A stretch of DNA of 64,000 nt from Spirochaetia bacterium (GTDB taxonomy: Bacteria; Spirochaetota; Spirochaetia; CADAEX01): assembly GCA_963662795.1 (NCBI GenBank), contig OY759746.1, positions 2,016,001 to 2,080,000 of the forward strand. The letters are read 5' to 3'. Numbering within the stretch: the stretch's first letter is position 1; the number at the start of each line of letters is the position of its first letter. Positions 15,197 through 40,886 of the stretch are shown here, piece after piece. Both the position numbers and the translations under genes were made by a program. The notes under the pieces were generated by a model that saw only the letters and a list, made by a program, of their open reading frames with translations, did not search any database and was not told where the DNA came from.

Positions 15197-15449
15197 GTCC
15201 GGCCTTGGCGGTGCCGTGCGGCCTGGACAAGAAGGGGTCGTACTGCATATAACAGCGAATGGCCGGTTCCGGCTGTTTCTAAGGAAGCAGCCTCCACCCA
15301 AATTGCCGAAATAATTCATGTTAAGAATAATGGAATAGAGTATAAACTTTTAAAGTGAAAAACACCATCGGCAACTTCGGTCATTCGCGGGACGTTATCC
15401 ACAATACCCCCACAAGAAGCGATCGCCCGGACCTCCGGCCGACGGGCGA
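15197..15449 (+). repeat. Composite junction site S9 (4 | gamma | 7)
   Basis: Same architecture as the other sites. Confidence 0.9.
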
Positions 15450-15509
15450 GAGAATCCAGAATAATGAATATGTTTAAAGAAAGCTGATGATATATAATGT
15501 AAATAGTAA

Positions 15510-16163
15510 ATGGAGAATGATATGGGAATTGTTTATATTTTAACTAATGATGCAATGCCAGGAATAATCAAAATAGGAATAACTGATGGAACTGTTGAAG
15601 ATAGAATAAAAAATCTTGACAATACTTCTTTGCCATTACCATATAGGTTTTATTTTGCTATTAAAAGTAGTAGATACAAGGATATTGAAAAATTAGCGCA
15701 TAATGCTTTTTCTGAATATAGGGTAAGAGAAAATAGGGAATTTTTCCGAATTGATCCGGAACGTGCAGTCTCAGCATTAAGGATATCTGGAGAGAATGAA
15801 ATAAAATTAAAGAATGAAATGATAGATGAAAGTGGAAGTGTTGTAGAGAATAAAATCGAAGAAACAAAGTCATATAAAAAACGATTTTCTTTTGATAATG
15901 TAGGTATTCCTATCGGGGCAGAATTGGCATTTACTCGAGATGAGAGTAAAAAATGTATTGTAATATCAAATAGCGAAGTTGAATATAATAATCAATCTTA
16001 TTCATTATCAAAATTAGCAGATATATTTCTTACTGAAATGGGTTATAATTGGAAATCAGTACAAGGACCTGCATATTTTGAATATAATGGGAAAACACTT
16101 TATGAACTTAAAAAAGAAATGGAAGAAGAAGTCTTAGAGATAGAGGAAGAAGAATCCAAATAG
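15510..16163 (+). CDS. T5orf172/GIY-YIG family nuclease-domain protein
   Basis: GIVYILTN.AMPGIIKIG and REFF motifs. Confidence 0.8.
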   Translation: MENDMGIVYILTNDAMPGIIKIGITDGTVEDRIKNLDNTSLPLPYRFYFAIKSSRYKDIEKLAHNAFSEYRVRENREFFRIDPERAVSALRISGENEIKLKNEMIDESGSVVENKIEETKSYKKRFSFDNVGIPIGAELAFTRDESKKCIVISNSEVEYNNQSYSLSKLADIFLTEMGYNWKSVQGPAYFEYNGKTLYELKKEMEEEVLEIEEEESK

Positions 16164-16205
16164 CAAATGTTCAATTTTTTAATCCATTAATTTTTGAAAA
16201 AGCTA

Positions 16206-16477
16206 GTCCGGCCTTGGCTCCGCCGTACGGCCTGGACAAGAAGTGGGGGCACTGTTGGATAACAGAGGATAATTCGCTGCGCTCGGAATACCTCGCTTGG
16301 CCTGCGGCATATTTTGCTATCAATAAAACAGTTCATATTATATTTTTACTCTCTTTAAATATATTTCCCAAGACTATTATGTTAAAAAAGGTTTTAGCAA
16401 AACATCGCTTATCCTCAGGACGTTATCCACAATGCCCCCACAAGATGCGATCGCCCGGACCTCCGGCCGACGGGCGA
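16206..16477 (+). repeat. Composite junction site S10 (7 | beta variant | 7)
   Basis: Same architecture. Confidence 0.9.
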
Positions 16478-16543
16478 GGATATTCAATATTGAAAATGTA
16501 CAATACCAATCATAAAATGTGTTTGATTATAAAAGGGGAAAAT

Positions 16544-17158
16544 ATGACGTGTTATTACAAATATTGTAAAAAATGTCGTGAAAGAAATGATGAATATGAA
16601 CCAATTGAAAGTTTTCAAAAAAATGACGGGAATATTAAAATTATGTTTATTGGGCAAGATCCAACAATTAGAAAAAGGCAAGAAAGAGTAAGAATGGCAT
16701 TAATGCTTGATGATGAGAATAGTCAAATAAAAAGATGGATAAAAAATATTTTTGGAAATGAATTATTAATTAAAAGTAAAATATTAGGGACAAATCTTGT
16801 AAAGTGCGTATTAAAAGAAGTGCCAACAAATGATGGTGTTGGAGGAATAGATTATTTAATCGCTCCTTTTAATCATTGTAAAGAGCATTTAATAAAAGAA
16901 TTCAATACATTTAAACCCGACTATGTGTTTACATTAGGTGAACCTTGTCATCAATTGTTTTATTCGTTAATAAAAAATATCGATAATCCAAAAAAACAAA
17001 AAATGAGCGAATATTTTAATGGTGAATTGCATGAACTAAAATACAATGAAATAAATTTTAAATATAGTCCATTATTACATATTCAAACATATCGTGTTGC
17101 TCAAAAATATGGTGACATAGTTAAGAAATTTGAAAATGAAATAAAAAAAATAAGATAA
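16544..17158 (+). CDS. Uracil-DNA glycosylase-like superfamily protein
   Basis: IMFIGQDP, TNLVKC, VFTLGE, PLLH; start placed at ATG 16544 after an RBS. Confidence 0.7.
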   Translation: MTCYYKYCKKCRERNDEYEPIESFQKNDGNIKIMFIGQDPTIRKRQERVRMALMLDDENSQIKRWIKNIFGNELLIKSKILGTNLVKCVLKEVPTNDGVGGIDYLIAPFNHCKEHLIKEFNTFKPDYVFTLGEPCHQLFYSLIKNIDNPKKQKMSEYFNGELHELKYNEINFKYSPLLHIQTYRVAQKYGDIVKKFENEIKKIR

Positions 17159-17203
17159 ACCGATAATTTGTACTAGTAGAATAATTACCTGACAATAGAA
17201 GAA

Positions 17204-17475
17204 GTCCAGCCTTGGCTCCGCCGTACGGCCTGGACAAGAAGTGGGGGCACTGGTGGATAACAGAGGATACTGCGCTACGCTCGGAGTACCTCGCTTGGCC
17301 TTCGGCACACATCACAGGTTTTAAATTACTGCTTTTAGAATTAACAAGTTTTCAAAAGAAAGATATATAATATTTGTCTTTTTATTCATTGGCTGTGATT
17401 CGTCGCGTATCCTCAAAACGTTATCCACAATGCCCCCACAAGAGAAAATCGCCCGGGCCTCCGGCCGACGGGCGA
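17204..17475 (+). repeat. Composite junction site S11 (7 | beta | 7)
   Basis: TGGGGGCACTGGTGGATAAC ... GTTATCCACAATGCCCCCA. Confidence 0.9.
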
Positions 17476-17561
17476 GGATTTTATCCAAACAGAATCCATT
17501 GGGAAAAAGCGCAAAGACTATTTTCATAATAAACTATTATTGAAATAAAGGAGAAAACAAT

Positions 17562-17825
17562 ATGATTGAGTCAAGGTGTGGTTTATTGTGTAGTATTTGT
17601 AAATATCGTGAGCAATTTAACTGTGCTGGATGTTTAACAATCGAAAAACCTTTTTGGAGTGATAGTTGTCCTGTGAAAAATTGTTGTGAAAAAAGAAACT
17701 ATGAGCATTGTGGAAAATGTAATGATTTTCCATGTGAGTTATTAAATCAGTTTTCATATGATAAAGAACAGGGTGATAATGGGAAACGTATTGAACAGTG
17801 CAGATACTGGATAAAAGGAAAATAA
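17562..17825 (+). CDS. DUF3795-like Cys-rich small protein
   Basis: CGLLCSIC...CAGC...C.VKNCC...HCGKC.DFPC. Confidence 0.75.
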   Translation: MIESRCGLLCSICKYREQFNCAGCLTIEKPFWSDSCPVKNCCEKRNYEHCGKCNDFPCELLNQFSYDKEQGDNGKRIEQCRYWIKGK

Positions 17826-18149
17826 ATGTCAACAACAGCTGATTTTGTGGAATATATATGTGAACAAGTAAACGGAGTAGGTAATATCCGTTATAAAAAA
17901 ATGTTCGGCGAATATATGGTTTATATAAATGAAAAACCAGTGTTACTGGTGTGTGACAATACTCCATACATAAAAATGCTAGATTGTATTTCTGAATTAA
18001 TGAAAAATGCTGAAACTGGATATCCATACAAAGGGTCAAAAGAACATTATATTTTAGATATTGACAATTCAGATTTCGCAAAAGAGATTGTCACGATTCT
18101 TGAAAAGAATTATGAAGTACCAAAGAAAAAAGCTAAAAAAGCAAAATAA
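17826..18149 (+). CDS. TfoX N-terminal domain protein
   Basis: KKMFGEYMVY motif. Confidence 0.75.
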   Translation: MSTTADFVEYICEQVNGVGNIRYKKMFGEYMVYINEKPVLLVCDNTPYIKMLDCISELMKNAETGYPYKGSKEHYILDIDNSDFAKEIVTILEKNYEVPKKKAKKAK

Positions 18150-18233
18150 TTCATCTTTGGATAAATTGTTGCAGTAATGAGCATTTTTAATAGATGTATG
18201 TACTGGTAGAATAATTACCTGACAATAGTATAA

Positions 18234-18506
18234 GTCCGGCCTTGGCTTCCAGCCGTGCGACCTGGACAAGAAGTGGGGGCCCTGGTGGATAACAGAGGAT
18301 AAAGCGCTTCGCTCGGAGTACCTCGCTTGACCTTCGGCACACATCGTAGGGTTTAAACTACCTCTTTAAGAAATACTTAGTTTTGGAAGAAAAATATTAC
18401 AACTTTGAAATAATAATTCTTGAGCTACGATGCGTCGCTTATCCTCGGGACGTTCTCCGAAATACCGCCCCAAGAGGAGACGCCCGGACCTCCGGCCCAC
18501 GGGCGA
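18234..18506 (+). repeat. Composite junction site S12 (7 | beta | 5)
   Basis: Same architecture. Confidence 0.9.
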
Positions 18507-18779
18507 GGAAATATAGGCAAAGAAATAATATTTGATATTTTCCCTATAGCATATTCTGAACAACCAAAAGATTGTATTTTGAGAATATTTATTTGGATTT
18601 AAATAAAATTAATAAAAAAAGATCGAATTCTGGATATTTTAAGGATTTTGTCGTGTGATATTATTCCGAAAGAAATGTTTAATAAGTGTTTTAAAAAAGT
18701 AATATTACGAATTAAAAAACCTTGTAGATTTGGTATTTAAAGTGTATACTATGAAGTGTATACTAAAAGAGGTAGAATT

Positions 18780-19025
18780 ATGGAAATAAGTACAAAAGAA
18801 CTCAGGATAAAACCTGGTAGAATAATAGAAAAAGTCTCAAATGGACAGGAAGTTGTAGTAACTTTCAGAGGAAAAGCATTGGCTAGAATAGTGCCTATGC
18901 CTAATTTGGGAAAAAATATCGAAGAGAATGAAAAAGAAGAACTCTTTGGATTATGGAAAAATCATAAAAATATTGGTGATGTTGATAATTACGTAAGAAA
19001 AATAAGAAAAGGAAGAGAGTTTTGA
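18780..19025 (+). CDS. Phd/YefM-family antitoxin
   Basis: ISTKELR...VVVTFRGKALARIVP. Confidence 0.8.
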   Translation: MEISTKELRIKPGRIIEKVSNGQEVVVTFRGKALARIVPMPNLGKNIEENEKEELFGLWKNHKNIGDVDNYVRKIRKGREF

Positions 19026-19399
19026 TAATTGATACAGATGTAATAATATGGTTTTTAAGAGGAAATGAAAAAGCCAAGGAAGTAGTTTATAAAAATATCC
19101 CATTTAAAATATCTGTAATAACCTATATGGAAATTGTGCAGGGAATGAAAGATAAAAAAGAATTATTAGTTTTTCAAAAGCAGTTGAGAAAATGGAATGT
19201 AGAGATTTTACAAATAGATACAGAAATATCGTCAAGAGCGATGTTTTTTGTAGAAGATTATTTTTTAAGTCATTCAATGGAATTATCAGATGCTTTAATT
19301 GCAGCGACAGGAATACAAACAAAAGATATAGTATTAACAGCAAATGATAAACATTATAAATTTATTCCCAACATTCAGTTGGAAAAGTTTAAACCTTAG
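19022..19399 (+). CDS. vapC: VapC/PIN-domain toxin
   Basis: IIDTDV, DALIAAT, TANDKHY. Confidence 0.9.
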   Translation: MIIDTDVIIWFLRGNEKAKEVVYKNIPFKISVITYMEIVQGMKDKKELLVFQKQLRKWNVEILQIDTEISSRAMFFVEDYFLSHSMELSDALIAATGIQTKDIVLTANDKHYKFIPNIQLEKFKP

Positions 19400-19405
19400 A
19401 AAGCC

Positions 19406-19666
19406 CCAAGCCTTGGCGGTGCCGTGCGGCTTGGAAGAAGGGGCGGTACTTCCGAGAACAGCGGTTAAAGCGCTACGCTCGCAGTAGCTCGCTTGGGCTC
19501 CTGCCTGTGCGCAGGCAGTTCACCAAAAAAACACGAGTTACTCCAAGCTATAAATTAAAGAAAGTAAACATACAATGCAAATAGATTAATGTGTTTTCTT
19601 CGCTTAACCGCGGGACGTTATTTGAAATGCCCCGTAGGAAAATATATCGCGCCGTCCTGGCGCGAT
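19406..19666 (+). repeat. Composite junction site S13 (5 | delta | 6)
   Basis: Same architecture. Confidence 0.9.
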
Positions 19667-19711
19667 GGGAAATTCTAAAGACTAATGGAAATTAGTTAAA
19701 ATGAAATGTAA

Positions 19712-20122
19712 TTATAAAGTATTGAGACCAGCTTTGATACAAGCTGCTGTTAATTCTTTATCTAAAGATCCTATTGAACCCTGTTTTCTAATTCCAAGTT
19801 CCAAATAAGCAGCATCATAAGCACTTAAGTTATAGATCTGAGTAAGTTCCAGAAGTTTTTCAGTATATTCACTACCATAATTTGAATCAGTTATAAAATT
19901 AAATGAAGAAAGAAGCTTATTAATATTTAGAACATCATTGTGTTTTAAGCGTTTTCTTTTTACAGCAGTTGTTAAAACATTACTCATTTCATACCACCAT
20001 AGTAGAGGAATATAAACTTCATCATTTTCTTCAATATTTAGAAAAGATTTTTTAATAATTTCTGATTTTTCATCAGGAAGAAATAGAGATGCACAAAAAG
20101 AGCAATCAAGAATATAAACCAT
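19712..20122 (-). CDS. vapC: VapC/PIN-domain toxin (inverted TA cassette, copy 2)
   Basis: Protein identical to copy 1. Confidence 0.85.
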   Translation of the reverse strand: MVYILDCSFCASLFLPDEKSEIIKKSFLNIEENDEVYIPLLWWYEMSNVLTTAVKRKRLKHNDVLNINKLLSSFNFITDSNYGSEYTEKLLELTQIYNLSAYDAAYLELGIRKQGSIGSLDKELTAACIKAGLNTL

Positions 20123-20123
20123 T

Positions 20124-20354
20124 TTATTTCCTGCCAGATTTAATAGCTTCAAGTATGTTAAATTTCTCGTTTAAAGAGCTTTGATATTGAAATAATTGTG
20201 CAATTATCTCTTTACGAAGATATGTGTCTTCAGAAAAAGGAATAATTTTAGCAACAGGTTTTCCTCTTTTTGTTATGGTATAATTCTTGCCTTTTTGAAC
20301 TTCTTCAATTATTTCTGAAAAATGTGTTTTAGCATCAAAAGTACCAATGTTCAT
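20124..20354 (-). CDS. Phd/YefM-family antitoxin (copy 2)
   Basis: Protein identical to copy 1. Confidence 0.85.
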   Translation of the reverse strand: MNIGTFDAKTHFSEIIEEVQKGKNYTITKRGKPVAKIIPFSEDTYLRKEIIAQLFQYQSSLNEKFNILEAIKSGRK

Positions 20355-20470
20355 ATCGTCCTCTTATAATCTAGTATAGTAAGCTAGTAGCATAAAGTCA
20401 AGAAATATAGTAAAGAATAATTACAAGAGTAAAAACTTTTAATTTTGTAAGATATAGCGCTAAAGCAAGA

Positions 20471-20733
20471 AAGCCTATAGACGTCCTGTCTATAGGCTTA
20501 ATACGGGGCACTTCAAATAACAGAGGATAAAGCGCTACGCTCCCTTTGGTCGCTTGGGCTTCGCCACACATCGTAGGGTTTTTACTACAACATCTAAAAA
20601 CAACAAGTTTTGGAAGAAAATATTGCAACTTTGAAAATATCATTCTTATCCTACGATGCGTCGCTTATCCTCGGGACGTTATATGCAATACGACCCCAAG
20701 AGAAAATCGCCCGGACCTCCGGCCCACGGGCGA
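20471..20733 (+). repeat. Composite junction site S14 (6 | beta | 4)
   Basis: Same architecture. Confidence 0.9.
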
Positions 20734-20747
20734 GAAAAAATAATTCG

Positions 20748-20805
20748 CTGTATATACACTCTATATATGAAATATATGGTTTTCTAGTTATTTAATATGT
20801 TAAAT
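20748..20805 (+). promoter_or_regulatory. attI-like capture segment of carrier cassette 3
   Basis: CTGTATA...TTTCTAGTTATTTAATAT|GTTAAAT. Confidence 0.7.
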
Positions 20806-20821
20806 ATACAAAGGGGATTAA

Positions 20822-22531
20822 ATGAAGAAAAATTCATTATTTTTAGGTGAAACAAATGATACAGACATTAATCTCATAATTTCAGAAAATGATTATAGAC
20901 CTGCTATCTTAAGCTTAAATAATAAACATTTTCCCAAAATAATTCCACAAGACGATCAAATAATGAAATTATTAAAAGAATCACAGAATAAATATAAGGA
21001 TTCAATACGATTCGTATATAATAATCGTAGATATTCAGCTTTAAATAATCAATTTGATTTTTCTGTAATATACGCAGAAACAATTATTGAAGCAGATATA
21101 AATAATATTGAAGATATACAAATTCAAAGTGTTCGATATTATTTATCTAATTTTAATCGTTATATTTTAGATGGCAATATTAGCAATAAATTTGAGAATA
21201 GTGAATTTACTCGTAAAATATCAATGCCTGAATTTAGTACAAAAATTAATTATAAGAACTTAGAAGTATCTATTTTCAACAAATACTTATTTGATACAGA
21301 AAAGAATGATAGAAAATTTAAGATTGATGAGTATCCAGTAATAGAATATAGAACCAATGATAAATTCGAATTTTATGACATTGTATCATTTTCACATGAT
21401 TTGAGCATGATTTTTACTTATTTGACAGGATATGAATGCTATCCTATGCATATTTGGGTTAGTGATGATAATTCGTATTATAGATCTTTATATAAACCTG
21501 TACCTACAATAAGAGACATTAACATTGTTACTTCTCATGAATTTATTTTCAAATTTAAAGATCTTTGTGAAAAAAATGATTTCTCAAAAATATTTACAAA
21601 TTACTATTCAAATGAGCGATTTATAAAGTTTAAAAAACTTTATTCAAGATTTTATTATTTATACTCTTCTCAAAACGAATGGGAATATGAATTGCTTGGC
21701 TATTTAAGTGTTTTTGAGAAGTCTATTAGTAATATACAAAAGTATAAATATATTGATATAGAAATTAAAAAAAATATAATTGATACGGTAAAAAATAGTT
21801 TATTGACCGAATTTAAAAAAAATAGAAATATTGATTATGAACCCATAGAAAAAAGCGTTTTGAATTATAAAGAAAAATTAACTTACCAAAAGAAGCATTT
21901 TTTAACTTTTAGAGAGAAATATTTAGTTTGGATTGAAAACTTAGATCAAACATTGAATTCTATATTCAGTTTTGATGAAAGAGAGTTTAAAATAATAAAA
22001 AAATTAAGAGATGATATTGCTCATTCAAATTCGATTGATTATTCAGATTATGATATATCTAAAATATTTGAAATAATTGAAAAAATGAAACTAATATTAT
22101 TATATCTAATATACACCGATTTGGGATTCGATCTTAAGAGAATAATTTCGAATTTACATTCAACAATGAATCCTATATTAAGAAAATCCAATATAGATAA
22201 AGTAGCATTAAAACGGGCTAGTGGACGAATTCCATTTATTAAAATAAACAACCATGATTTTAAGTATTTCGCAGAACATAATTTAATGTATCTTGTTGTG
22301 GAAAAGAAAACAGAAAATACAGATATCAATTATTTAATTAATAAATCGTTTACAGAAAACGTTAATAATTCATGGATAAATGATGACGGTAAACAATTTC
22401 ATAATATACGTGACTTTTTGAAGGATTTATATAAACCTAATAATATAGAAATCAACTTTTCTTCTGGTTATGTAGAAACAAAGGATGGTTTGTTAAAAGA
22501 TGTTCATGGATTATGTATTATTGATATTTAA
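20822..22531 (+). CDS. ApeA-like HEPN-domain protein
   Basis: Rx4H motif (RDDIAH) in the helical C-terminal half; size and layout resemble ApeA. Confidence 0.6.
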   Translation: MKKNSLFLGETNDTDINLIISENDYRPAILSLNNKHFPKIIPQDDQIMKLLKESQNKYKDSIRFVYNNRRYSALNNQFDFSVIYAETIIEADINNIEDIQIQSVRYYLSNFNRYILDGNISNKFENSEFTRKISMPEFSTKINYKNLEVSIFNKYLFDTEKNDRKFKIDEYPVIEYRTNDKFEFYDIVSFSHDLSMIFTYLTGYECYPMHIWVSDDNSYYRSLYKPVPTIRDINIVTSHEFIFKFKDLCEKNDFSKIFTNYYSNERFIKFKKLYSRFYYLYSSQNEWEYELLGYLSVFEKSISNIQKYKYIDIEIKKNIIDTVKNSLLTEFKKNRNIDYEPIEKSVLNYKEKLTYQKKHFLTFREKYLVWIENLDQTLNSIFSFDEREFKIIKKLRDDIAHSNSIDYSDYDISKIFEIIEKMKLILLYLIYTDLGFDLKRIISNLHSTMNPILRKSNIDKVALKRASGRIPFIKINNHDFKYFAEHNLMYLVVEKKTENTDINYLINKSFTENVNNSWINDDGKQFHNIRDFLKDLYKPNNIEINFSSGYVETKDGLLKDVHGLCIIDI

Positions 22532-22658
22532 CAAAGCCATGAACAGTGATCGAGTCTTTGGCACAACATCTGCTCACCGCTTCACTCTGAGGTAAATGTA
22601 GCGCCAATTCTTTCGCTTTGCTACAGAAGCGAGTCGGCTCGTTATGGTGACGCTAATT
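22526..22658 (+). repeat. Canonical-type attC site (core GTT changed to GCT)
   Basis: ATTTAAC ... GCTAATT; inverse core matches GTTAAAT at 20799. Confidence 0.7.
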
Positions 22659-22686
22659 ATACTGGAATATTTAGAAAAGAGGAAAA

Positions 22687-22940
22687 GTCCGGCCTTGGCG
22701 GTGCCGTGCGGCCTGGACAAGAAGGGGTCGTACTGCATATAACAGCGAATGACCGGTTCCGGCTGTTTCTAAGGAAACAGCCGGAACCCAAATTGCCGAA
22801 ATAATACATGTTAAGAATAATGGAATAGAGTATAAACTTTTGGAGTGAAAAACACCATCGTCAACTTCGGTCATTCGCGAGACGTTATGTGCAATGAGCC
22901 CGACAAGAGGAAGACGCCCGGACCTCCGGCCGACGGGCGA
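22687..22940 (+). repeat. Composite junction site S15 (4 | gamma | 8)
   Basis: Right arm GTTATGTGCAATGAGCCCGAC. Confidence 0.9.
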
Positions 22941-23009
22941 AGAGATGATATTTTTACTATTATTTCAGTATTAAATGTTATAATCATATAAAAAGAGGTA
23001 ATAAATTAT

Positions 23010-24980: not shown

Positions 24981-24993
24981 ATATAAATGAAGA

Positions 24994-31002: not shown

Positions 31003-31011
31003 GAGGTAATT

Positions 31012-31812: not shown

Positions 31813-31927
31813 TCTAATTACTGTTTCAATCTGATAATTCCTATTGTCACACTTTTTGCTGTCGTCATTATAGGCTAAAAGTCAACAATCTCTTCTGGCC
31901 AAATTACAAACTAGGCATATGTTCTAA
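31811..31927 (+). repeat. Degenerate canonical-type attC site
   Basis: AATCTAAT (near inverse of GTTTGATT at 30048) ... GTTCTAA. Confidence 0.4.
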
Positions 31928-31946
31928 TAATTAAAAAAGAAAAGAA

Positions 31947-32221
31947 GTCCAGCCTTGGCTCCGCCGTGCGGCTTGGACAAGAAGCGGCTGGTACTGGAGC
32001 ATAACAGCGGTTCAAGCGCTTCGCTCGGAGTACCTCGCTTGGCCTGCGGCAAACATCGTAGGATTTGAACTACAACTTATAGAAACAAAAAGTTTTAAAA
32101 GAAAATAAATAAAAGCTTTGAGTTTTCGATTCATGTTCTACGATGCTTCGCTTAACCGCGGAACGTTATCCACAATGCCCCCCACAAGAGGAAATCGCCC
32201 GGACCTCCGGCCGACGGGCGA
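31947..32221 (+). repeat. Composite junction site S19 (10 | delta | 7)
   Basis: Same architecture. Confidence 0.9.
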
Positions 32222-32277
32222 GGATATGCAGTATAATATTAAATGTTATATACAATACATTATGAAGGTGTATAAGA

Positions 32278-33375
32278 GTGAGAAAATTAATTATTATTGG
32301 AAATGGTTTTGATCTTTCACATGGTTTTGAGACTAGCTATAAGTCATTTTTGCTTTATTATCTTAATAAAGTACAATTAGAATTCTTTAAGATTCGAGAA
32401 AATAACAATGATACAATATATGAGAATCCACTGATTAAGATTAAGACTTCATTAAGTAAAGAAAAAATTATGGAGAGTATAAATAATAAAAAATTATTAG
32501 ACTGGTTCCAATTCTATAATGGGATGTCGTATAGTTATCAAATAAAAAAAGGGATTGTCGATGAACAATCAGTTCTTGGTTCAGATAAATATAAAAAAAT
32601 AGTTATCTCTATAAAATCAAAACTTTTTGATAAAATATTTGATAAAGTGTCTTTGAATTGGGTAGATATTGAAAATGAATATTTTTCTACAATACTAGAA
32701 AATATAGACGATAAAGATAGTTTGAATACAATAAATAATGATTTATCATATTTAAAAGAGCATTTAATTACGTATCTAAAAGAAATAACCCAAAATAATG
32801 ATAATATAATCGAAAAAGAATATATACGCAAATTCACAGAAAATAATCCGGATGAAATTATGTTTCTAAACTTTAATTATACTAATACTATTGAAAGATA
32901 TAAAAACGCAATAGTATTGAATGAAGGTAATAAATTAAATGAAGATAGTATTAAAATAAATTATATACATGGAAGTTTAGATAATTTACATGGAAAACCA
33001 ATTTTTGGTATTGGTGATGAACATCATAAAAGATATGAAGAATTAAAAAATCATGAGAACTGTTTAGCAGCTTTTAGAAATAGTAAATCAATATGTTATT
33101 TAAAGAATGGTAATTATAAAGATTTACAATATTTTTTAGGGAAATATTATGATGTTGAAATATATGGCCATTCTTGTGGATTGTCAGATCGAACACTATT
33201 GAAATATATATTTCAAAATAAAAATTGTATAAAAATTAGAATATTTCATTACAGGGGAGAAGAAGATTATTCAAATAAAACTATAGAAATATTACGTCAT
33301 TTTGATGATCCACAAATATTTAGAGATAAGGTAGAAACATATAATCCTGGTTACTCTATGAATCTAAAGAATTGA
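32278..33375 (+). CDS. abiH: AbiH-family abortive infection protein
   Basis: IIGNGFDLSHG, FNYT, YIHG, IYGHS motifs. Confidence 0.8.
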   Translation: MRKLIIIGNGFDLSHGFETSYKSFLLYYLNKVQLEFFKIRENNNDTIYENPLIKIKTSLSKEKIMESINNKKLLDWFQFYNGMSYSYQIKKGIVDEQSVLGSDKYKKIVISIKSKLFDKIFDKVSLNWVDIENEYFSTILENIDDKDSLNTINNDLSYLKEHLITYLKEITQNNDNIIEKEYIRKFTENNPDEIMFLNFNYTNTIERYKNAIVLNEGNKLNEDSIKINYIHGSLDNLHGKPIFGIGDEHHKRYEELKNHENCLAAFRNSKSICYLKNGNYKDLQYFLGKYYDVEIYGHSCGLSDRTLLKYIFQNKNCIKIRIFHYRGEEDYSNKTIEILRHFDDPQIFRDKVETYNPGYSMNLKN

Positions 33376-33415
33376 AATAGTGTACAGGTAGAATAATTAC
33401 CTGACAGGTTAATGC

Positions 33416-33688
33416 GTCTGGCCTTGGCTCCGCCGTTCGGCCTGGACAAGAAGTGGGGGCACTGGTGGATAACAGCGGTTAAAGCGCTTCGCTCGGATTA
33501 CCTCGCTTGGCCTTCGGCAAACATCGCAGGATTTGAACCACAACTGTATATAGCAACAAGTTTTCAAAAGATAGAAAATACAACTATGTGTTTGTTATTC
33601 TTAATCTACGATGCTTCGCTTAACCGCAGGACGTTATCCACAATGCCCCCACAAGATGCAATCGCCCGGACCTCCGGCCGACGGGCGA
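33416..33688 (+). repeat. Composite junction site S20 (7 | delta | 7)
   Basis: Same architecture. Confidence 0.9.
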
Positions 33689-33814
33689 GGAATAAGAGAG
33701 TAAATATTTTAATATAGAAAAGCCATGTAATTTAAAATTATTTCCCAAAAAAAAGAAAAAGAAATATTTGACATAATATATATCATGGTATATATTATCT
33801 ATAGAGGTAATATT

Positions 33815-34045
33815 ATGAATACAGCTAAATTATTTCAGAATGGTCGATCTCAGGCTGTTCGTCTGCCTAAAGAATTTCAATTTAGTGGAGAAGAGGTTTT
33901 TATACAAAAACATGGAGACGCTGTACTTTTAATTCCTCATGAAAAAGCCTGGGAAGTATTTATGGAAGGTCTTTTAGGTTTCTCAGATGATTTTATGAAA
34001 GATGGTAGGGATCAAGGTGTAAACCAAGAAAGAGAAAGCTTCTAA
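33815..34045 (+). CDS. vapB: VapB antitoxin (AbrB/MazE fold)
   Basis: [18 protein letters not shown]. Confidence 0.9.
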
Positions 34046-34446
34046 TGTACCTTCTTGACACTAATATTTGCATTTATGCAATTAATAGAAAGCCAGAGAA
34101 TGTTCTGGAGGCAATAAAAGAAAAATCTAAAAATGGAATATATATTTCAGCACTTACTGTTGCAGAATTAGAGTATGGAGTGGAAAATAGTAAACAAATA
34201 GAAAAAAACCGAATAGCTTTGTTGAAATTTATTTCAATTTTTAATATTTTAAATTTTGATGATTCAGATGCTATTCCTTATGGGAAATTAAAATCAAAAC
34301 TCAAGAAAGATGGAAAAATAATTGGACCAATAGATATGCTACTTGCAGCACAAGCGATAAGTAAAGATATGATATTTGTTACAAATAATGTTGGTGAATT
34401 TGCAAGAATTGAAGGTTTGAAAATTGAAGACTGGACAAAATATTAA
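34045..34446 (+). CDS. vapC: VapC toxin
   Basis: YLLDTNICIY, IGPIDMLLAAQA, VTNN..EF. Confidence 0.9.
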   Translation: MYLLDTNICIYAINRKPENVLEAIKEKSKNGIYISALTVAELEYGVENSKQIEKNRIALLKFISIFNILNFDDSDAIPYGKLKSKLKKDGKIIGPIDMLLAAQAISKDMIFVTNNVGEFARIEGLKIEDWTKY

Positions 34447-34502
34447 GAATTATATTAAAAATATTTTATCAAATTAATTAAAATAGAAGAAAAAGAATCT
34501 AA

Positions 34503-34696
34503 GTCCGACCTTGGCTTCTCCATACGGCCTGAACAAGAAGGGGACGTACAACTGCAAACAGCAATTAATTCGCTACGTTCCCTTCGGTCGCTTGAACTTA
34601 ACTAAAATTCGCAGTTGAAAAGAATAAAAGAATTAAGCAAATTTTAAAAAATACAACAATTATCTGCGATGTTTAGTTTACCAACTATCGTTAAGT
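34503..34696 (+). repeat. Degenerate junction site S21 (class 3-like arm, decayed core, no right arm or hairpin B)
   Basis: GTCCGACCTTGG...GAACAAGAAGGGGACGTACAACTGCAAAC ... CGTTAAGT. Confidence 0.7.
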
Positions 34697-34712
34697 GGCA
34701 TTGCACTATGCT

Positions 34713-35597
34713 TTATGATGCAAGTGGTAATTCTAATTGCTTTATGACAGTTATTTTGGGAATATCAACGTCGATTGTATCAATTGGACTTTTAATATCT
34801 AAAAGATCAAACCTTTGGGCATGTAAGTATATCATTGTAGAGTTTATTGAAGAGTGCCCTAATAGCCGCATAATATAAAATATATTTACATTATGCTCTA
34901 ATAGATGTGTTGCAAAACTATGTCTTAATGTGTGAACATGTGCTGATTTATTTATATTTGTTTTTCTAAAATATTTTTGAAAAACCTCCTGAATACGCCT
35001 TGATCTCATAGGTATAGCTTTATTTTTAAAATTAAAAAATAAATAATTAATAGGGGCATAATTTAGTATATATTCTTTTAATAATTTAATTGTATTGTCA
35101 CCAATTATTGCATATCTTTCCTTTCTATTTTTTGATTCTGATACAAATATAAGTTTTCTGTTAAAATCTATATCAGTTATTTTAAGATTTAAGCCTTCTG
35201 ATATTCGAAGTCCTGAAGAATATAGTAATGTGAATAAAGTCTTATATCTAAAATCAGAACAGTTATTTAAAAATAGTTTTATTTCTTCCTTTGTCAGAAT
35301 CGTTGGAACTTTAAATACTTTTTTAGGTCTTGGAATGGAAACAATATATTCTTTCATATTGTGAAGAGAAAAGAAAAATAAAAGAGCATTATAATAGCAA
35401 TGAATTGTGGAGAGACTATTCCCCGAATCATATAAATAAAAGAAAAATCGTCTTAACTCCTGTTTTGTTATATCTGTGGGTTTTTTATTGAAAAATAAAG
35501 CAAGTTTATGAACATAAAAGACATATATATTTATTGTTCTTTGGCTATATCCTTGTAAAGTCATTTCTTCTATCATGTGCTCACGTAAATATCCCAT
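34713..35597 (-). CDS. Tyrosine recombinase, integron-integrase-like but lacking the IntI-specific insertion
   Basis: SGLRISE, K, HTLRHSFATHLLE, LLGH, TMIY and C-terminal SPID; N-terminal SAM-like domain. Confidence 0.92.
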   Translation of the reverse strand: MGYLREHMIEEMTLQGYSQRTINIYVFYVHKLALFFNKKPTDITKQELRRFFFYLYDSGNSLSTIHCYYNALLFFFSLHNMKEYIVSIPRPKKVFKVPTILTKEEIKLFLNNCSDFRYKTLFTLLYSSGLRISEGLNLKITDIDFNRKLIFVSESKNRKERYAIIGDNTIKLLKEYILNYAPINYLFFNFKNKAIPMRSRRIQEVFQKYFRKTNINKSAHVHTLRHSFATHLLEHNVNIFYIMRLLGHSSINSTMIYLHAQRFDLLDIKSPIDTIDVDIPKITVIKQLELPLAS

Positions 35598-35775
35598 AAT
35601 TATCTCCTATAAAAAAAAAGTAATTAAGTATGGAGAATATTTGAAAATATTTAAAGGTATTATGTTATACTTTTAAAATTACACAATAAAATGTGTTAAA
35701 TATTACGAGAAAATAACTGGCAGCAAAATTAACTATAGATTGTACAGGTAGAGTAATTACATGACAATGAATGGA

Positions 35776-36048
35776 GTCCGGCCTTGGCTTCCAGCCGTGC
35801 GGCCTGGACAAGAAGTGGGGGCACTGGTGGATAACAGAGGATAAAGCGCTACGCTCGGAGTACCTCGCTTGGCCTGCGGCACACATCGTAGGATTTGAAC
35901 TTCAACATCTAGAAACAACCAGTTTTGAAAGAATAATAAAACAGCTTTGAATATCAATGCTTATCTTACGATGCGTCGCTTATCCTCGGGACGTTATCCA
36001 CAATGCCCCCACAAGAGAACACCGCCCGGACCTCCGGCCGACGGGCGA
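35776..36048 (+). repeat. Composite junction site S22 (7 | beta | 7)
   Basis: Same architecture. Confidence 0.9.
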
Positions 36049-36124
36049 GGAGAAGAAGCAGATAAATGATTGATGAATATTCGGAAAAGGATTATTTTGA
36101 AAATATACATAGTAGGAGAAAAAT

Positions 36125-36796
36125 GTGAATAAAAAAGAAAATGAATTATTTGAAGGATGTAAATCAGGGAATATCGAAATAGTAAAAAAAGCTTTAACAA
36201 GTGGAATTTTATCACCAAAAGCAAATGTAAATGTAAAAAATGAAAATGGAGTTACTCCTTTGATGATCGCAGCGCAGAATGGATTTTTAGAAATTGTAAA
36301 TATATTAATTACAAACGAAGCAAGTATTAATGAAAGTAGCAAGGGTGAAATGACAGCGCTCAAAATGGCTGCTTACAATGGAAATGTTGATGTTACCAAA
36401 TTATTGATAGAAAAAGGAGCCACTGGATTTAATAAAATATTGAAAACGGAATTTAAGAATTTTACAGCAAATGCAAAGCATGAATTACTGCAAGTTATAA
36501 ATATAATAAACCAAAAAATATCATCGAAAGATGCTATGCAACATATATTTAATATTGGTTTTAGATTTGATTCACAAATGAAAGGATTATTTGCTGATAA
36601 AAAATGTTATGAAGATGGAATATTTTATATGAGTGAAAATGGACTTTTAGCTCTTAAAAGAGGAGCACAAGGTGAAATAATAGCTATTGATTATATTCAA
36701 ATAAGTAATAACTTTAAAAATAGAATAACATTAATAAAACCAGTTGATGACGAACATGGAGAGATTTTATTCAATGATATAATGGAAAGCTTATAA
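36125..36796 (+). CDS. Ankyrin repeat protein
   Basis: GVTPLMIAAQNGFLEIVNILI; TALKMAAYNGNVDVTKLLI. Confidence 0.85.
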   Translation: MNKKENELFEGCKSGNIEIVKKALTSGILSPKANVNVKNENGVTPLMIAAQNGFLEIVNILITNEASINESSKGEMTALKMAAYNGNVDVTKLLIEKGATGFNKILKTEFKNFTANAKHELLQVINIINQKISSKDAMQHIFNIGFRFDSQMKGLFADKKCYEDGIFYMSENGLLALKRGAQGEIIAIDYIQISNNFKNRITLIKPVDDEHGEILFNDIMESL

Positions 36797-36847
36797 AATA
36801 GTTAAAAAAATTAAAATTAAACTTTTAAGTTTTAAATTGGAAAGTAA

Positions 36848-37120
36848 GTCCGGCCTTGGCTTCCAGCCGTACGGCCTGGACAAGAAGTGGGGGCACTGGT
36901 GGATAACAGCGGTTAAAGCGCTACGCTCGGAGTACCTCGCTTGGCCTGCAGCATATTTTGCTGTCATTTAAAAAGAGCGATTAATATATAATTCTTCTCT
37001 GGTTTCGAGAAAAAGTCAGAAGTGTTTTAAATGTTAACTGCAAAACATCGCTTAACCGCGGGACGTTATCCACAATGCCCCCACAAGATGCGATCGCCCG
37101 GACCTCCGGCCGACGGGCGA
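36848..37120 (+). repeat. Composite junction site S23 (7 | delta | 7)
   Basis: Same architecture. Confidence 0.9.
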
Positions 37121-37192
37121 GGAAATATGCATAATCAAATATTAGAGATAAATCATTTTTAACTGTACTCAATAGGAATAAATATTTAAAAT

Positions 37193-38467
37193 CATAGGTG
37201 TCCAAAACAAGGACTATTAATTGCCTGAAATCCCAACTATAATGAATTAAGCTTGGACGGCTAATTCTTTACAGGAAAAGGAAATCAGGCAATGAGTTAC
37301 AATAATACCATTTTAAAACAAATTCTACAAATAATTCCGAGACATGAATTTGAAAAATCTGTAAAAAAACATAAAGGGGACTTTGCTTCCAAAGGTTTTA
37401 CCTGTTGGCAGCATTTTGTCTCCATGCTCTTTGCACAACTTTCAGGACAGACCGGGTTAAGAGGCATTGAAAACTCTTTTGAATCAATCAGTAACCACCT
37501 TTATCATATGGGTGTAAAAAAGGTAAAACGCTCTACATTATCTTACGCAAATAATAATAGAAGCTGTGAAGTTTATGAAAATGTTTTCACTGATCTTCTT
37601 GATAAGATATTATCCATGAAGAGAGCGCATAAACATAAATTTAAAAATCCTCTTTACAGTGTTGATGCATCAACTATTGACTTGTGTTTAAATCTCTTTC
37701 CATGGGCAAATTTCAGAAAATATAAAGGCGGAATAAAACTTAATGTAAAACTTGACCATAGTGGATATATTCCAGCTTTTGTATCAGTTACAACTGCAAA
37801 AACACATGAAGTCAATTCCTTGAAAAAAATGGCTTTCAACAAAGGCGATGTCATCACGTTTGATCGTGGTTATACTGACTTTAAATTATTCGCAAATTAT
37901 TGTAATACCGGTATTTATTTTGTTACCAGGTTAAAAAAGAATGCTGATTATAAAATTGTCCAGAGAAAAGATACCTCCTCCTTTAAAAATATTACATCTG
38001 ATCAGATCATAGAAATGAAAGGATTTTACACCAGTAAAAAATGCCCGTTAAAATTAAGACGAATCAGAAGCAGAGATCCTGAAACCGGTAAATATATTGT
38101 AATTCTTACCAATAATTTCCTTTGGTCTCCAACAACAATTGCTGCTGTTTACAAAGACAGATGGCAGATTGAAATATTTTTTAAAACTATCAAACAGAAC
38201 CTCAAGATCAAGAAATTCTTTGGTACTTCCAGAAATGCTGTAATGACACAAATCTGGATTGCCCTAATTGCTTTTCTGTTACTTCAGTTCCTTAAAATGT
38301 TTTCATGTAGAAAATGGACTCATTTTTCACTGATGAAATTGATTCCTGTAATACTGACATCAAGAAAAGATATCTGGACTGTTCTCAATAAACCGCCTTC
38401 AGAACAGACTAAAAAAACTAGTTTCAATCTTCAACTGGAGCTGTTATGATTGTTTTGGACACCTATG
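37193..38467 (+). mobile_element. IS4-family insertion sequence, copy 1 (1275 bp)
   Basis: 18-bp TIR CATAGGTGTCCAAAACAA; 9-bp target duplication ATTTAAAAT. Confidence 0.92.
37292..38449 (+). CDS. IS4-family DDE transposase
   Basis: VDASTI, FDRGY, Y..RWQIE.FFK (YREK) motifs. Confidence 0.92.
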   Translation: MSYNNTILKQILQIIPRHEFEKSVKKHKGDFASKGFTCWQHFVSMLFAQLSGQTGLRGIENSFESISNHLYHMGVKKVKRSTLSYANNNRSCEVYENVFTDLLDKILSMKRAHKHKFKNPLYSVDASTIDLCLNLFPWANFRKYKGGIKLNVKLDHSGYIPAFVSVTTAKTHEVNSLKKMAFNKGDVITFDRGYTDFKLFANYCNTGIYFVTRLKKNADYKIVQRKDTSSFKNITSDQIIEMKGFYTSKKCPLKLRRIRSRDPETGKYIVILTNNFLWSPTTIAAVYKDRWQIEIFFKTIKQNLKIKKFFGTSRNAVMTQIWIALIAFLLLQFLKMFSCRKWTHFSLMKLIPVILTSRKDIWTVLNKPPSEQTKKTSFNLQLELL

Positions 38468-38577
38468 ATTTAAAATAATTATTAAAATACTTAAATATTA
38501 TAGAAAGAGAGATTGATTAATGACTTTTAAACAGAAAGATTTTTTAAAAACCTATGAAATATCTAGTAAAGTAATTG

Positions 38578-39852
38578 CATAGGTGTCCAAAACAAGGACT
38601 ATTAATTGCCTGAAATCCCAACTATAATGAATTAAGCTTGGACGGCTAATTCTTTACAGGAAAAGGAAATCAGGCAATGAGTTACAATAATACCATTTTA
38701 AAACAAATTCTACAAATAATTCCGAGACATGAATTTGAAAAATCTGTAAAAAAACATAAAGGGGACTTTGCTTCCAAAGGTTTTACCTGTTGGCAGCATT
38801 TTGTCTCCATGCTCTTTGCACAACTTTCAGGACAGACCGGGTTAAGAGGCATTGAAAACTCTTTTGAATCAATCAGTAACCACCTTTATCATATGGGTGT
38901 AAAAAAGGTAAAACGCTCTACATTATCTTACGCAAATAATAATAGAAGCTGTGAAGTTTATGAAAATGTTTTCACTGATCTTCTTGATAAGATATTATCC
39001 ATGAAGAGAGCGCATAAACATAAATTTAAAAATCCTCTTTACAGTGTTGATGCATCAACTATTGACTTGTGTTTAAATCTCTTTCCATGGGCAAATTTCA
39101 GAAAATATAAAGGCGGAATAAAACTTAATGTAAAACTTGACCATAGTGGATATATTCCAGCTTTTGTATCAGTTACAACTGCAAAAACACATGAAGTCAA
39201 TTCCTTGAAAAAAATGGCTTTCAACAAAGGCGATGTCATCACGTTTGATCGTGGTTATACTGACTTTAAATTATTCGCAAATTATTGTAATACCGGTATT
39301 TATTTTGTTACCAGGTTAAAAAAGAATGCTGATTATAAAATTGTCCAGAGAAAAGATACCTCCTCCTTTAAAAATATTACATCTGATCAGATCATAGAAA
39401 TGAAAGGATTTTACACCAGTAAAAAATGCCCGTTAAAATTAAGACGAATCAGAAGCAGAGATCCTGAAACCGGTAAATATATTGTAATTCTTACCAATAA
39501 TTTCCTTTGGTCTCCAACAACAATTGCTGCTGTTTACAAAGACAGATGGCAGATTGAAATATTTTTTAAAACTATCAAACAGAACCTCAAGATCAAGAAA
39601 TTCTTTGGTACTTCCAGAAATGCTGTAATGACACAAATCTGGATTGCCCTAATTGCTTTTCTGTTACTTCAGTTCCTTAAAATGTTTTCATGTAGAAAAT
39701 GGACTCATTTTTCACTGATGAAATTGATTCCTGTAATACTGACATCAAGAAAAGATATCTGGACTGTTCTCAATAAACCGCCTTCAGAACAGACTAAAAA
39801 AACTAGTTTCAATCTTCAACTGGAGCTGTTATGATTGTTTTGGACACCTATG
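38578..39852 (+). mobile_element. IS4-family insertion sequence, copy 2
   Basis: Same TIRs; 9-bp target duplication AAGTAATTG. Confidence 0.92.
38677..39834 (+). CDS. IS4-family DDE transposase
   Basis: Protein identical to copy 1. Confidence 0.92.
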   Translation: MSYNNTILKQILQIIPRHEFEKSVKKHKGDFASKGFTCWQHFVSMLFAQLSGQTGLRGIENSFESISNHLYHMGVKKVKRSTLSYANNNRSCEVYENVFTDLLDKILSMKRAHKHKFKNPLYSVDASTIDLCLNLFPWANFRKYKGGIKLNVKLDHSGYIPAFVSVTTAKTHEVNSLKKMAFNKGDVITFDRGYTDFKLFANYCNTGIYFVTRLKKNADYKIVQRKDTSSFKNITSDQIIEMKGFYTSKKCPLKLRRIRSRDPETGKYIVILTNNFLWSPTTIAAVYKDRWQIEIFFKTIKQNLKIKKFFGTSRNAVMTQIWIALIAFLLLQFLKMFSCRKWTHFSLMKLIPVILTSRKDIWTVLNKPPSEQTKKTSFNLQLELL

Positions 39853-40610
39853 AAGTAATTGAATTAATAAATTCAAGTGAAAGTAATATTTATATTATTA
39901 CTCCTTATTTGAAACCGTGGATTCAACTTGAAAGAACTCTTGAAATAGCTGCTAATAAGAAAAAAAAAGTAACCTTTATTTTAAGATCTGGTGAAGAAAA
40001 AAAAGACTTTGTTAAAAAATTGTATCAAAATTATGGTTTTGAAGTTTATATATATGAATATTTACATTTAAAATTATATACTGCAGATAATAAAGCAATT
40101 TTCTCATCTATGAATCTTTATGATAGTTCAAATGAAAAAAATATAGAAATGGGGTTAATAATTAATTTTTCACCAAAAGATTATATAACTTTTAAAAAAG
40201 AATATATTTATGAAAACATTTTTATGAGCAATCCACAATTTTACTTTAAAGGAAATTTTGAAAATGAGTATTTTAAATATCAAAACAATGAAAAACAAGC
40301 GTTAAATGAATTTGGTAAAATTGGATATTGTATAGTTTGTGGTAAGAAAATTGATCATCTCAAAAATTCAAATAAATATGAACCTTACTATACCAGATGT
40401 GAAGAGTGTTATTTCAAAAATCCAAATCTAAATAATTATTATGATAAAAAAGTAAATTATTGTTATATTTGTGGAGAAAAAGGTAATTATATAATTGGGA
40501 AGCCATTTCATGAAAACTGTATTAAAACATTGAAAAGTTTAAGACCTTATTAAATCTATTCATAATAAATATAGGTGTACAGGTAGAGTAATTACCTGAC
40601 AACGCAAGTA

Positions 40611-40886
40611 GTCCGGCCTTGGCTTCCAGCCGTACGGCCTGGACAAGAAGTGGGGGCACTGGTGGATAACAGCGGTTAAAGCGCTACGCTCGGAGTACCT
40701 CGCTTGGCCTACGGCAAACATCGTAGGATTTTATCTACAGCTATTGGGAACATCAAGTTTTAAAAGAAAGAAATATTTAGATTTTTATTTATTATTCTTG
40801 GTCTACGATGCTTCGCTTAACCGCGGGACGTTATCGGCAATGGCTGGGCGAAGAGGACACCGCCCGGACCTCCGGCCCACGGGCGA
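40611..40886 (+). repeat. Composite junction site S24 (7 | delta | 11)
   Basis: Right arm GTTATCGGCAATGGCTGGGC. Confidence 0.9.

Follow-up and report, generated by a model that had tools for sequence, protein, structure and literature searches.

Cassette ends as probable halves of one giant site in a 332-kb integron-like array of a Spirochaetia bacterium

Introduction

The genome of a Spirochaetia bacterium (GenBank assembly GCA_963662795.1) consists of a single contig (OY759746.1, designated C1 below) of 3,931,449 bp with about 30% G+C, and it carries a long array of gene cassettes. The window considered here is the whole stretch of 64,000 nucleotides (nt) at C1:2,016,001–2,080,000, with particular attention to the cassettes between window positions 15394 and 40670, in which nucleases, toxin–antitoxin pairs, anti-phage-type proteins and a recombinase are enclosed by closely similar ends; positions without the prefix C1 are those of the window. 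An original prediction, made from the letters of the window, had read these ends as pre-formed pairs that are repeatedly loaded with new genes between two hairpins.

In the parts of Cury et al. 2016 (PMC4889954) that were available, homogeneous sites around unrelated cargo are described as established for large arrays, and the origin of integron cassettes as unresolved. The analysis presented here favours another reading of the matched ends, to which a probability of roughly three in four is given: the two ends of a cassette are the halves of one giant site that is cut at G|TT (the bar marks the crossover), and the arms of this site are kept complementary by selection.

The cassette array and its junctions

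The region is part of a 332-kb, integron-like cassette array of about 188 sites. The junction motif CGCGGGACG|TT, with up to two mismatches, gave 189 plus-strand matches and none on the minus strand between C1:1,849,036 and C1:2,180,698; one match is false and at least five variant junctions escape the pattern. The array covers 331,662 bp (8.44% of the genome), the window lies wholly inside it, and the median spacing of its sites is 1,525 bp. The plus strand holds the longest open reading frame (ORF) in 168 of 184 cassettes. Judged by GC skew, replication starts near 1.40 Mb and ends near 3.43 Mb, which puts the bottom strands of the sites on the template of the leading strand. The cargo amounts to a large store of toxin–antitoxin and anti-phage genes. 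A profile search found no match above the IntI cut-off inside or beside the array, which, with its ~188 sites, has the composition that defines a cluster of attC sites lacking integron integrases (CALIN), namely at least two attC sites and no integron integrase in the cluster.

Each junction is a site of about 300 nt that reads, on the plus strand, hairpin A, CAAGAAG, left arm, AG, attC-like core, G|TT with the right arm, and hairpin B. Hairpin A is 32 nt long and GC-rich with a bulged T (GTCCGGCC..TTGGC-loop-GCCG..GGCCTGGAC), and a further small hairpin, C, which is AT-rich, separates it from the preceding stop codon in 24 of 135 cases. The left arm comprises an outer box of 8–10 nt, a bulge of 3–4 nt and an inner box ending in AAC. 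The core, of 140–180 nt, starts after AG, contains paired L boxes and a long, variable, AT-rich loop, and ends in CGGGACG|TT. The right arm, which complements a left arm, is followed by CAAGA and five to six free bases, by the 25-nt hairpin B (CGCCCGGACCTCCGGCCNACGGGCG), by A(G/A)GA and then by the cargo. In 14 of 184 cassettes a second hairpin family, with the fixed loop RTCC(A)T, replaces A and/or B; it comprises at least nine different, fully paired stems, a pattern found in 7 of 2000 random windows.

The core and its adjoining boxes have the marks of an attC site. The AAC and GTT triplets are paired in 99–100% of cassettes, and the L boxes covary across at least six core types. Measured from box to box the sites span 155–195 nt, longer than the attC sites of Treponema (63–132 bp in the available text of PMC3607928). 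The complete site at 35740–36060, which has neighbours of the same class, is predicted to fold into one long stem (outer box, inner box, spacer, L box, loop stem) with small flanking hairpins, at −61.7 kcal/mol for the bottom strand (z −7.6) and −57.5 kcal/mol for the top strand (z −4.5); the spacer and a bulge within the L box are visible in this fold. Since an Rfam scan of the window matched no family at gathering score, the junctions there fit no curated Rfam RNA family.

The matched ends of the cassettes

For 174 of the 184 cassettes, the right arm that opens the cassette and the left arm that closes it are reverse complements of each other. Inside one junction the two arms match in 51 of 185 cases, and among random pairs in 10.4%. 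Inner-box positions 4–9 are Watson–Crick paired in 91–99% of cassettes, with two to four pair types at each position, and the outer boxes are paired at seven or more of eight positions in 167 of 184 cassettes, compared with 11% of random pairs. This matching extends over 21 distinct inner and 35 distinct outer boxes, and clustering of the arms yields 24 classes. The largest, which the original prediction had numbered 7 and which is here called the big class, has 42 cassettes with clearly unrelated cargo. Its eight members named in that prediction have the 5' end GTTATCCACAATGCCCCCAC and the 3' end GTGGGGGCACTGGTGGATAAC in common, and Pfam confirms their cargo. The proposed limits of the run are exact: a G|TT junction has its G at 15394, and an ..ATAAC box has its C at 40670.

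Members of the big class do not vary in their arms and hairpin stems, but at least 13 versions of the linker before hairpin B exist among them, and three of the hairpin A loop. The 25-nt hairpin B recurs without mismatch at 49 loci of other genome records, mostly titled Spirochaetia and a few under other bin names, where the same arm classes precede different downstream sequence and cargo. With one mismatch allowed, it is present in 5 of 20 genomes of the order, and matched arms recur in one of them, G005. In addition, the cassettes at C1:2,115,688 and at window position 62153 are about 80% identical over their full length and have kept hairpins and outer boxes, and their inner boxes (TCCA/TGGA versus GTAG/CTAC) have changed at both ends together. 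Because linkers and loops vary around fixed arms and stems, because hairpin B is exact in other Spirochaetia and because inner boxes change on both ends at once, the near-identity of the ends points to selection on the site and not to recent copying. Unrelated genes would thus share arms because the site, not the cargo, is conserved and reused.

The proposal of nearly identical ends around unrelated cargo therefore holds for the big class; it fails for the class with the hairpin A variant CCAAGCC...GGCTTGG, in which 10 of the 16 cassettes hold a Phd-type antitoxin and 8 a PIN toxin, as against 0 of 42 and 1 of 42 in the big class. Three toxin–antitoxin pairs had been expected between CCAAGCC-class ends, and three antitoxin-led pairs do lie there (10866–11500, 18756–19399 and 54770–55292); two are Phd/PIN pairs, and the third joins Phd to a 90-aa protein without a family hit. 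The three are only distantly related to each other, and the proteins of the class as a whole are barely alignable, so that its shell, to judge from these comparisons, has outlived recognizable similarity of the cargo. Because cargo diverges to about 80% identity or past recognition while the shell stays constant, identical ends neither date a cassette nor reveal its birth.

Concerted evolution is another way in which ends could be kept alike: gene conversion among sites would homogenize them, and both the matching and the sharp cargo junction would be by-products. The array offers many long and similar direct repeats, alpha and delta cores are 92–94% alike (median), neighbours of the same class are more frequent than chance (the 51 of 185 junctions above, against 10%), and at C1:1962777 the right arm complements the left arm exactly, even at the bulge bases, and departs from the usual right-arm form as if copied from the opposite side. 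Conversion of one end at a time, however, predicts many mismatched cassettes, and 10 of 184 were found, of which at least four are compound units or have an extra inner junction. Free linkers and loops lie between invariant arms and stems, and other species retain the same classes of hairpin and arm. On this evidence gene conversion is an improbable source of the matching.

Crossover and cassette boundaries

Duplicated cassettes served as natural markers of the boundaries; there are 46 full-length duplicate pairs, 29 of them at 96% identity or more. Their alignments start 4–25 nt before the first T of G|TT, in a spacer common to all cores, and stop 2–13 nt past the next G|TT where the following cassettes differ, so that the left boundary lies at G|TT in all duplicate pairs. 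Upstream cores are at most 92.1% identical within the 29 near-identical pairs, and none is thus shared at 97% or above. The downstream core is shared at 97–100% in 13 of the 29, against a background in which 0–3% of cores within a type reach 99% identity, and is replaced in the remaining 16, to which we return below. Core type goes with the upstream arm class (mutual information 0.606 versus 0.364 ± 0.041; reached by 0 of 2000 shuffles) and not with the downstream one, for which 272 of 2000 shuffles attain the value observed. Read from these alignments, the geometry would be that of a classical integron, in which a cassette begins with TT, ends with the G of the following junction and carries the core with it.

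On this reading the matched ends need no pairing of pre-made parts, because both ends would be one site opened at G|TT; the separate end pairs of the original prediction would thereby be superfluous.

Cassettes of the window

The cassettes between 15394 and 40670, with their parts, are collected in Table 1. The true start of the UDG-superfamily gene must be later than listed, because the listed TTG start at 16214 falls in the preceding core. The junction at G 17420 has a variant spacer and lies outside the motif pattern, and the arm class GTTATGTGCAATGAGCCCGAC is also present in several other Spirochaetia genomes. Besides the SIR2/HerA, ApeA-like and AbiH cassettes of Table 1, anti-phage-type cargo in a cassette of its own includes an OLD-like ATPase/TOPRIM gene with a helicase (7046–9615). 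Single cassettes of the stretch 28224–37064 are present in contigs of three other samples, and were not counted as evidence.

Table 1. Cassettes and site components between window positions 15394 and 40670.
Feature	Position	Strand	Details
Big-class cassette, T5orf172 (15510–16163)	15394–16263	+	ends GTTATCCACAAT(A/G)CCCCCAC / GTGGGGGCACTGTTGGATAAC
Hairpins of the preceding cassette	B 15424–15448; A ~16206–16237	+	
attC-like core, beta type, 158 nt	16264–16421	+	..ATAAC box to G|TT; L boxes AGGATAA(T)TCGC / CGCTTATCCT; spacer CAGGACG
Big-class cassette, UDG-superfamily gene ending at 17158	16422–17261	+	Pfam
Big-class cassette, DUF3795 (17562–17825) and TfoX_N (17826–18149)	17420–18293	+	Pfam
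Cassette of class GTTCTCCGAAATACCGCCCC, Phd and PIN (18756–19399)	18452–19459	+	hairpin A variant CCCAAGCC..GGCTTGG
Cassette of class GTTATTTGAAATGCCCCGTA	19617–20521	+	second-family hairpins (loop GTCCT); one of three window copies
PIN and Phd genes of the preceding cassette	19712–20354	−	
Cassette of class GTTATATGCAATACGACCCC with its own attI-like site	20678–22743	+	crossover ~122 nt in; ApeA-like HEPN 20822–22531; inner G|TT ~22655; ..ATACTGGAATATTTAGAAAAGAGGAAAA before hairpin A
Cassette of class GTTATGTGCAATGAGCCCGAC, AAA_15/AAA_21 ATPase (23010–24980)	22884–25046	+	Pfam
Cassette of class GTTATACGAAAGACCGCGCC	25188–28065	+	second-family hairpins (loop ATCCAT) at both ends; SIR2_2 25228–26259; HerA-like ATPase 26269–28014, stop 3 nt before 3' hairpin
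Big-class cassette, 440-aa protein without Pfam family (28319–29641)	28224–29767	+	
Cassette of class GTTATGCTCAATACCAGCCGC	29923–32005	+	Pc-like box and attI-like site (~29987–30050); two ORFs without family, 30082–31812
Big-class cassette, AbiH (32278–33375)	32165–33473	+	Pfam
Big-class cassette, MazE-type antitoxin and PIN (33785–34446)	33633–35835	+	Pfam
294-aa tyrosine recombinase of the preceding cassette	34713–35597	−	without IntI insertion
Complete site with same-class neighbours	35740–36060		hairpins C and A, left arm, core, right arm, hairpin B
Big-class cassette, ankyrin-repeat gene (36125–36796)	35993–36907	+	Pfam
Big-class cassette, PLD-like gene (39831–40553)	37065–40670	+	Pfam; two tandem IS4-family copies upstream of the PLD-like gene, transposases 37292–38449 and 38677–39834

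Several elements accompany the array. A 1.28-kb insertion sequence (IS) of the IS4 family, with many near-identical copies in the genome, has repeatedly inserted in cassettes just 3' of hairpin B, in the window at 37292–39834 (in tandem, once) and at 56727–57884. Four copies of a cassette of 624–661 nt with no obvious gene (C1:1891173, 1953478, 1967591 and 2144387) carry, beyond the arms and in place of the local hairpins, 12-nt G-rich and C-rich end blocks that complement each other. Beyond the array, stray pieces of the system are found (C1:450380–451730, 2344500–2344860): the first consists of hairpins C and A with no arm, the second is a cassette end with arm and core that is cut by an IS, and the third is a lone arm and core behind a gene. 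A mobile-element end (..CAATCAGGACATAGGTAACAC.., repeated) cuts the right arm GTTATGCTCAATACCAGCC twice at the identical position, at about C1:2180725 (the array end) and at C1:2489560–2489920 (minus strand), and L048 is a further locus; the other end of the element adjoins an outer box and hairpin B in another genome. From its sequence context it looks like an element that targets this arm.

Shell-borne attI-like sites

The cargo junction is sharp and constant: conservation stops 4 nt after hairpin B (165 sites) and starts 1–5 nt before hairpin A (135 sites). The original prediction had counted the lack of a consistent junction as fatal to its own proposal, and such a junction is present. It had also pointed to stop codons that abut hairpin A directly (28014 and 43567). 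These are real but rare, as 3 of 72 small cassettes have a gap of 5 nt or less and the median gap is 51.5 nt.

A set of 26 cassettes has further structure. Here a promoter-like (Pc-like) box, TGCTGTATAAT, lies 3' of hairpin B and is followed by an attI-like segment that ends in ..TAGTTATTTAATATG|TT (..AATATG|TT) at a fixed 112–130 nt from the cassette start, where similarity stops. The 26 shells are spread over arm classes 7, 8, 3, 6, 5 and 1 in the numbering of the arm clustering, class 1 with a single borderline hit. The segment aligns with sequence just upstream of the true intI gene of G005, which likewise ends in ..TAATATG|TT. In one class, all seven shells have an inner G|TT junction followed by the same segment, ..ACTGGAATATTTAGAAAAGAGGAAAA, before hairpin A, and differ in cargo and in the sequence before the inner junction. 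An inner attC with paired R boxes was found in two of five shells of this class that were checked, and a strict search for inner attC sites gave paired 7-mers in 9 of 23 shells; by a looser test, 18 of 26 inner cargoes have a first heptamer with a complementary box close to the 3' end of the cargo, versus 9.9 expected. By these features the attI-bearing shells look like products of the insertion of ordinary integron cassettes into a shell-borne attI.

These observations bear on the proposal that ready-made shells (right arm and hairpin B at one end, hairpin A and left arm at the other) are repeatedly filled, so that cassette birth would be seen in action. The sharp edges of conservation, the 26 shells with their G005-like segment, the seven-member class with its inner sites, the excess of complementary heptamers and the presence of homologous cargo in shells of different arm classes all speak for it. 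Against it stands the focal class itself, which lacks a real attI-like site, as had been noted originally for most of the listed cassettes: the single hit (unit 89) ends in GGT, not GTT, and unit 128 has a weak match to the promoter-like motif, in a class where inner attC sites were not searched for. Throughout the genome no empty shell was found, since every hairpin B follows a core junction, variant cores included, and nowhere does an attI-left segment run straight into an attI-right segment. The shortest cassettes are the 624-nt elements in four copies described above; a spacing of 278 nt that had appeared as an empty shell proved to be a false pattern match inside an inner attC. In the big class, any linkage between the sub-variants of the 5' and 3' ends is weak (359 of 5000 shuffles attain the value observed), and the toxin–antitoxin class looks like one diversified lineage. 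Taken as a general account of the array, shell filling is thus rather unlikely, and its supported part is confined to the sharp junction and the 26 attI-bearing shells.

Sources of new cargo were sought as the original prediction had suggested, in the closest non-cassette homologues and in genes for HUH endonucleases and reverse transcriptases. Cargo paralogues outside the array, IS copies aside, are 68–81% identical in nucleotide sequence, none above 81%, and the similarity is confined to coding sequence, so that recent recruitment of cargo was set aside. An origin of the IS200/IS605 or HUH type was likewise rejected: no Y1 HUH transposase with hairpin-ended units was found, the single Y1_Tnp gene (C1:3660696–3661037) lying outside the array, 1.5 Mb away. 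The only RVT_1 gene of the genome (C1:2157066–2159451) is itself cassette cargo, split over two frames (342 and 134 aa) and adjoining a 184-aa membrane protein, and by its sequence looks Abi- or defence-like and not intron-like; with no second reverse transcriptase in the genome, and no Rfam match within the window, a group II intron route was discarded as well.

Recombinases

A 339-aa tyrosine recombinase heads the array, co-oriented with the cassettes, its stop codon about 150 nt before the first right arm. It scores 214.5 bits against the XerA/"integron integrase" model (cut-off 220) and 200.1 bits, in two stretches, against TIGR02249 (IntI; cut-off 265), and its best relatives of solved structure are IntI4 (2a3v) and the archaeal XerC-like protein 4a8e. 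In an alignment with three true IntI proteins of relatives the catalytic residues are kept and the IntI insertion is absent. The array thus has neither of two features that characterize an integron, i.e. an integrase with the IntI-specific insertion (I2 helix region) beside the array, or an attI and Pc at the array head in divergent orientation to intI. The intI gene of Treponema denticola is co-oriented with its array.

Orthologues of the head recombinase are found in G019 (80% identity) and in G016, G004 and G005 (40–46%), and sit at array heads in G001/G016, G004, G005 (contig 4) and G019; in G024 the orthologue is 59% identical and its position relative to an array is unclear from the downstream sequence. 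Within the order, each of the five genomes that contain hairpin B has a gene of this kind. An intact IntI is present in three of the five, and in G019, which is 95% complete, no intI was found. In the present genome the true intI is a pseudogene (C1:412089–413302; L001, L002), 1.43 Mb from the array, which retains the IntI-specific insertion (ALEKKYPNA..W.WVFP) and has one frameshift, in-frame stops and IS copies directly upstream. The recombinase carried as cargo at 34713–35597 is 35% identical to the head enzyme, and a partial copy of it, 88% identical, lies at C1:1881755–1882309 in a cassette of another arm class.

Proposed mechanism

If the cassette ends are halves of one giant site, strand exchange at G|TT would make the right arm and hairpin B the first part of the cassette that follows, and each cassette would thus bear both arms of its own site at its two ends. 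In the excised circle these arms would pair and give a stem that exceeds the one available in the array by about 20 bp, and the arm classes would be families of this stem, with complementarity kept by selection. In line with this, at 136 junctions with unlike neighbours the predicted fold of the own-arm site (the two arms of one cassette joined) is 13.5 kcal/mol better than that of the hybrid present in the array, and this modelled gain may act as a lock favouring the excised form. The intact IntI-like enzyme at the array head, which lacks the IntI-specific insertion, probably works the giant sites; a stem weakened after integration would damp re-excision and let the array grow, and hairpins A and B may be accessory protein-binding elements.

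Four points weigh against this interpretation. First, the roles of the hairpins and of the weakened stem are suggested by folding energies and conservation. Second, recombination at this locus is read from sequence and no product of it was seen; the contigs of 12 public sequencing runs break at the repeats, where the joints reported have short sides (20–36 letters), and are unsuited to the reading of circles or empty shells. Third, true IntI genes lie divergently beside cassettes that bear hairpin B (G005, contig 3, and G003), so that IntI may work these sites and the head enzyme may have another task. Fourth, of the 29 near-identical cassette pairs, 16 do not share the downstream core, and in 12 of these the core type differs. 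Identity in such pairs ends at ..ATAAC|AG, which a single crossover at G|TT does not predict; for example, the cassettes at C1:1,920,491 and C1:2,137,176 are 99.94% identical over 1,710 nt up to ..ATAAC|AGCGA and are followed by a delta and an alpha core, respectively.

This last pattern, together with the finding that arm classes combine with all core types, would suit a movable unit made up of gene and two arms as terminal inverted repeats, cut at G|TT and at AAC|, with the cores as fixed docking spacers. The 13 pairs that keep the downstream core at 97–100%, where chance within a type gives 0–3%, and the dependence of core type on the upstream arm class are not expected of such a unit, and among the array junctions there is none without a core and none with adjacent cores. 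The swaps themselves could possibly arise by homologous exchange within the 60–100-nt 3' shell shared by same-class cassettes, or by occasional events on the other strand. Excision of the top strand was considered as their source and rejected, since comparison of the downstream core in one copy with the upstream core in its partner never gave a match better than the background of the type. A gene-plus-arms unit is therefore very improbable, and the split giant site is retained as the preferred reading.

The insertion-less recombinase and the attI-bearing shells could be joined in a scheme of two-tier capture, in which the former shuffles standard shells bounded by the giant split sites and some shells are mini integron platforms, with promoter and attI, that are loaded by a classical IntI with ordinary attC cassettes. 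This scheme is put forward tentatively, at somewhat less than even odds.

Comparison with known systems

The array resembles sedentary chromosomal integrons, such as that of Vibrio cholerae with its VCR repeats, in being a long, one-stranded array of mostly one- or two-gene cassettes, in the homogeneity of its sites and in a cargo rich in toxin–antitoxin and anti-phage genes. The sites share with theirs the AAC/GTT triplets, R and L boxes, an unpaired spacer, a bulged base, a variable loop and the G|TT crossover. The placing of their bottom strands on the leading-strand template is also common to both, and was found in 25 of 30 sedentary integrons in the portion of PMC5371416 consulted, which reports up to 203 cassettes for the set. 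On the other hand, the array differs from sedentary integrons in its ~300-nt sites, in the 20-bp class-specific arms outside the crossover and in the two flanking hairpins; its head gene lacks the IntI insertion and is co-oriented, its true intI is a remote pseudogene, and some cassettes bear their own promoter-like box and attI-like site.

As in a CALIN, a cluster of attC-type sites has no IntI gene nearby, and intI pseudogenes elsewhere in the genome are given as one proposed origin of such clusters in the available parts of PMC4889954. Unlike a typical CALIN, the array is far larger, and an insertion-less, IntI-like recombinase heads arrays of this kind in at least five genomes. The chromosomal integrons of Treponema are a precedent for integrons in spirochaetes; among the spirochaetes examined there, the accessible text of PMC3607928 reports integrons only in Treponema and notes that attC arrays outlive intI loss in T. 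phagedenis. That text describes no flanking hairpins, long arms or second recombinase, in which the present array differs.

In the literature searched, supplements aside, we found no account of long class-specific arms outside the crossover, of flanking hairpins, of cassettes with their own attI-like site or of an insertion-less recombinase heading integron-like arrays. The IntI insertion has been tied to single-strand recombination (PMC7790495, as far as the consulted part of that paper goes).

Biological meaning

With site halves readable at both ends of a cassette, the history of each cassette becomes traceable. The shells that bear their own attI-like site and different ordinary cassettes represent a concrete and assayable entry of genes into a standard frame, and a second recombinase, related to IntI, lacking its insertion and conserved at the heads of such arrays, offers a handle on the origin of cassettes. 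If the two-tier scheme is true, the class-specific arms would serve as a lock, by which the integrated copy becomes a much poorer substrate than the excised circle, and the loading of shells would be a visible and testable route by which a foreign cassette becomes a member of a big array.

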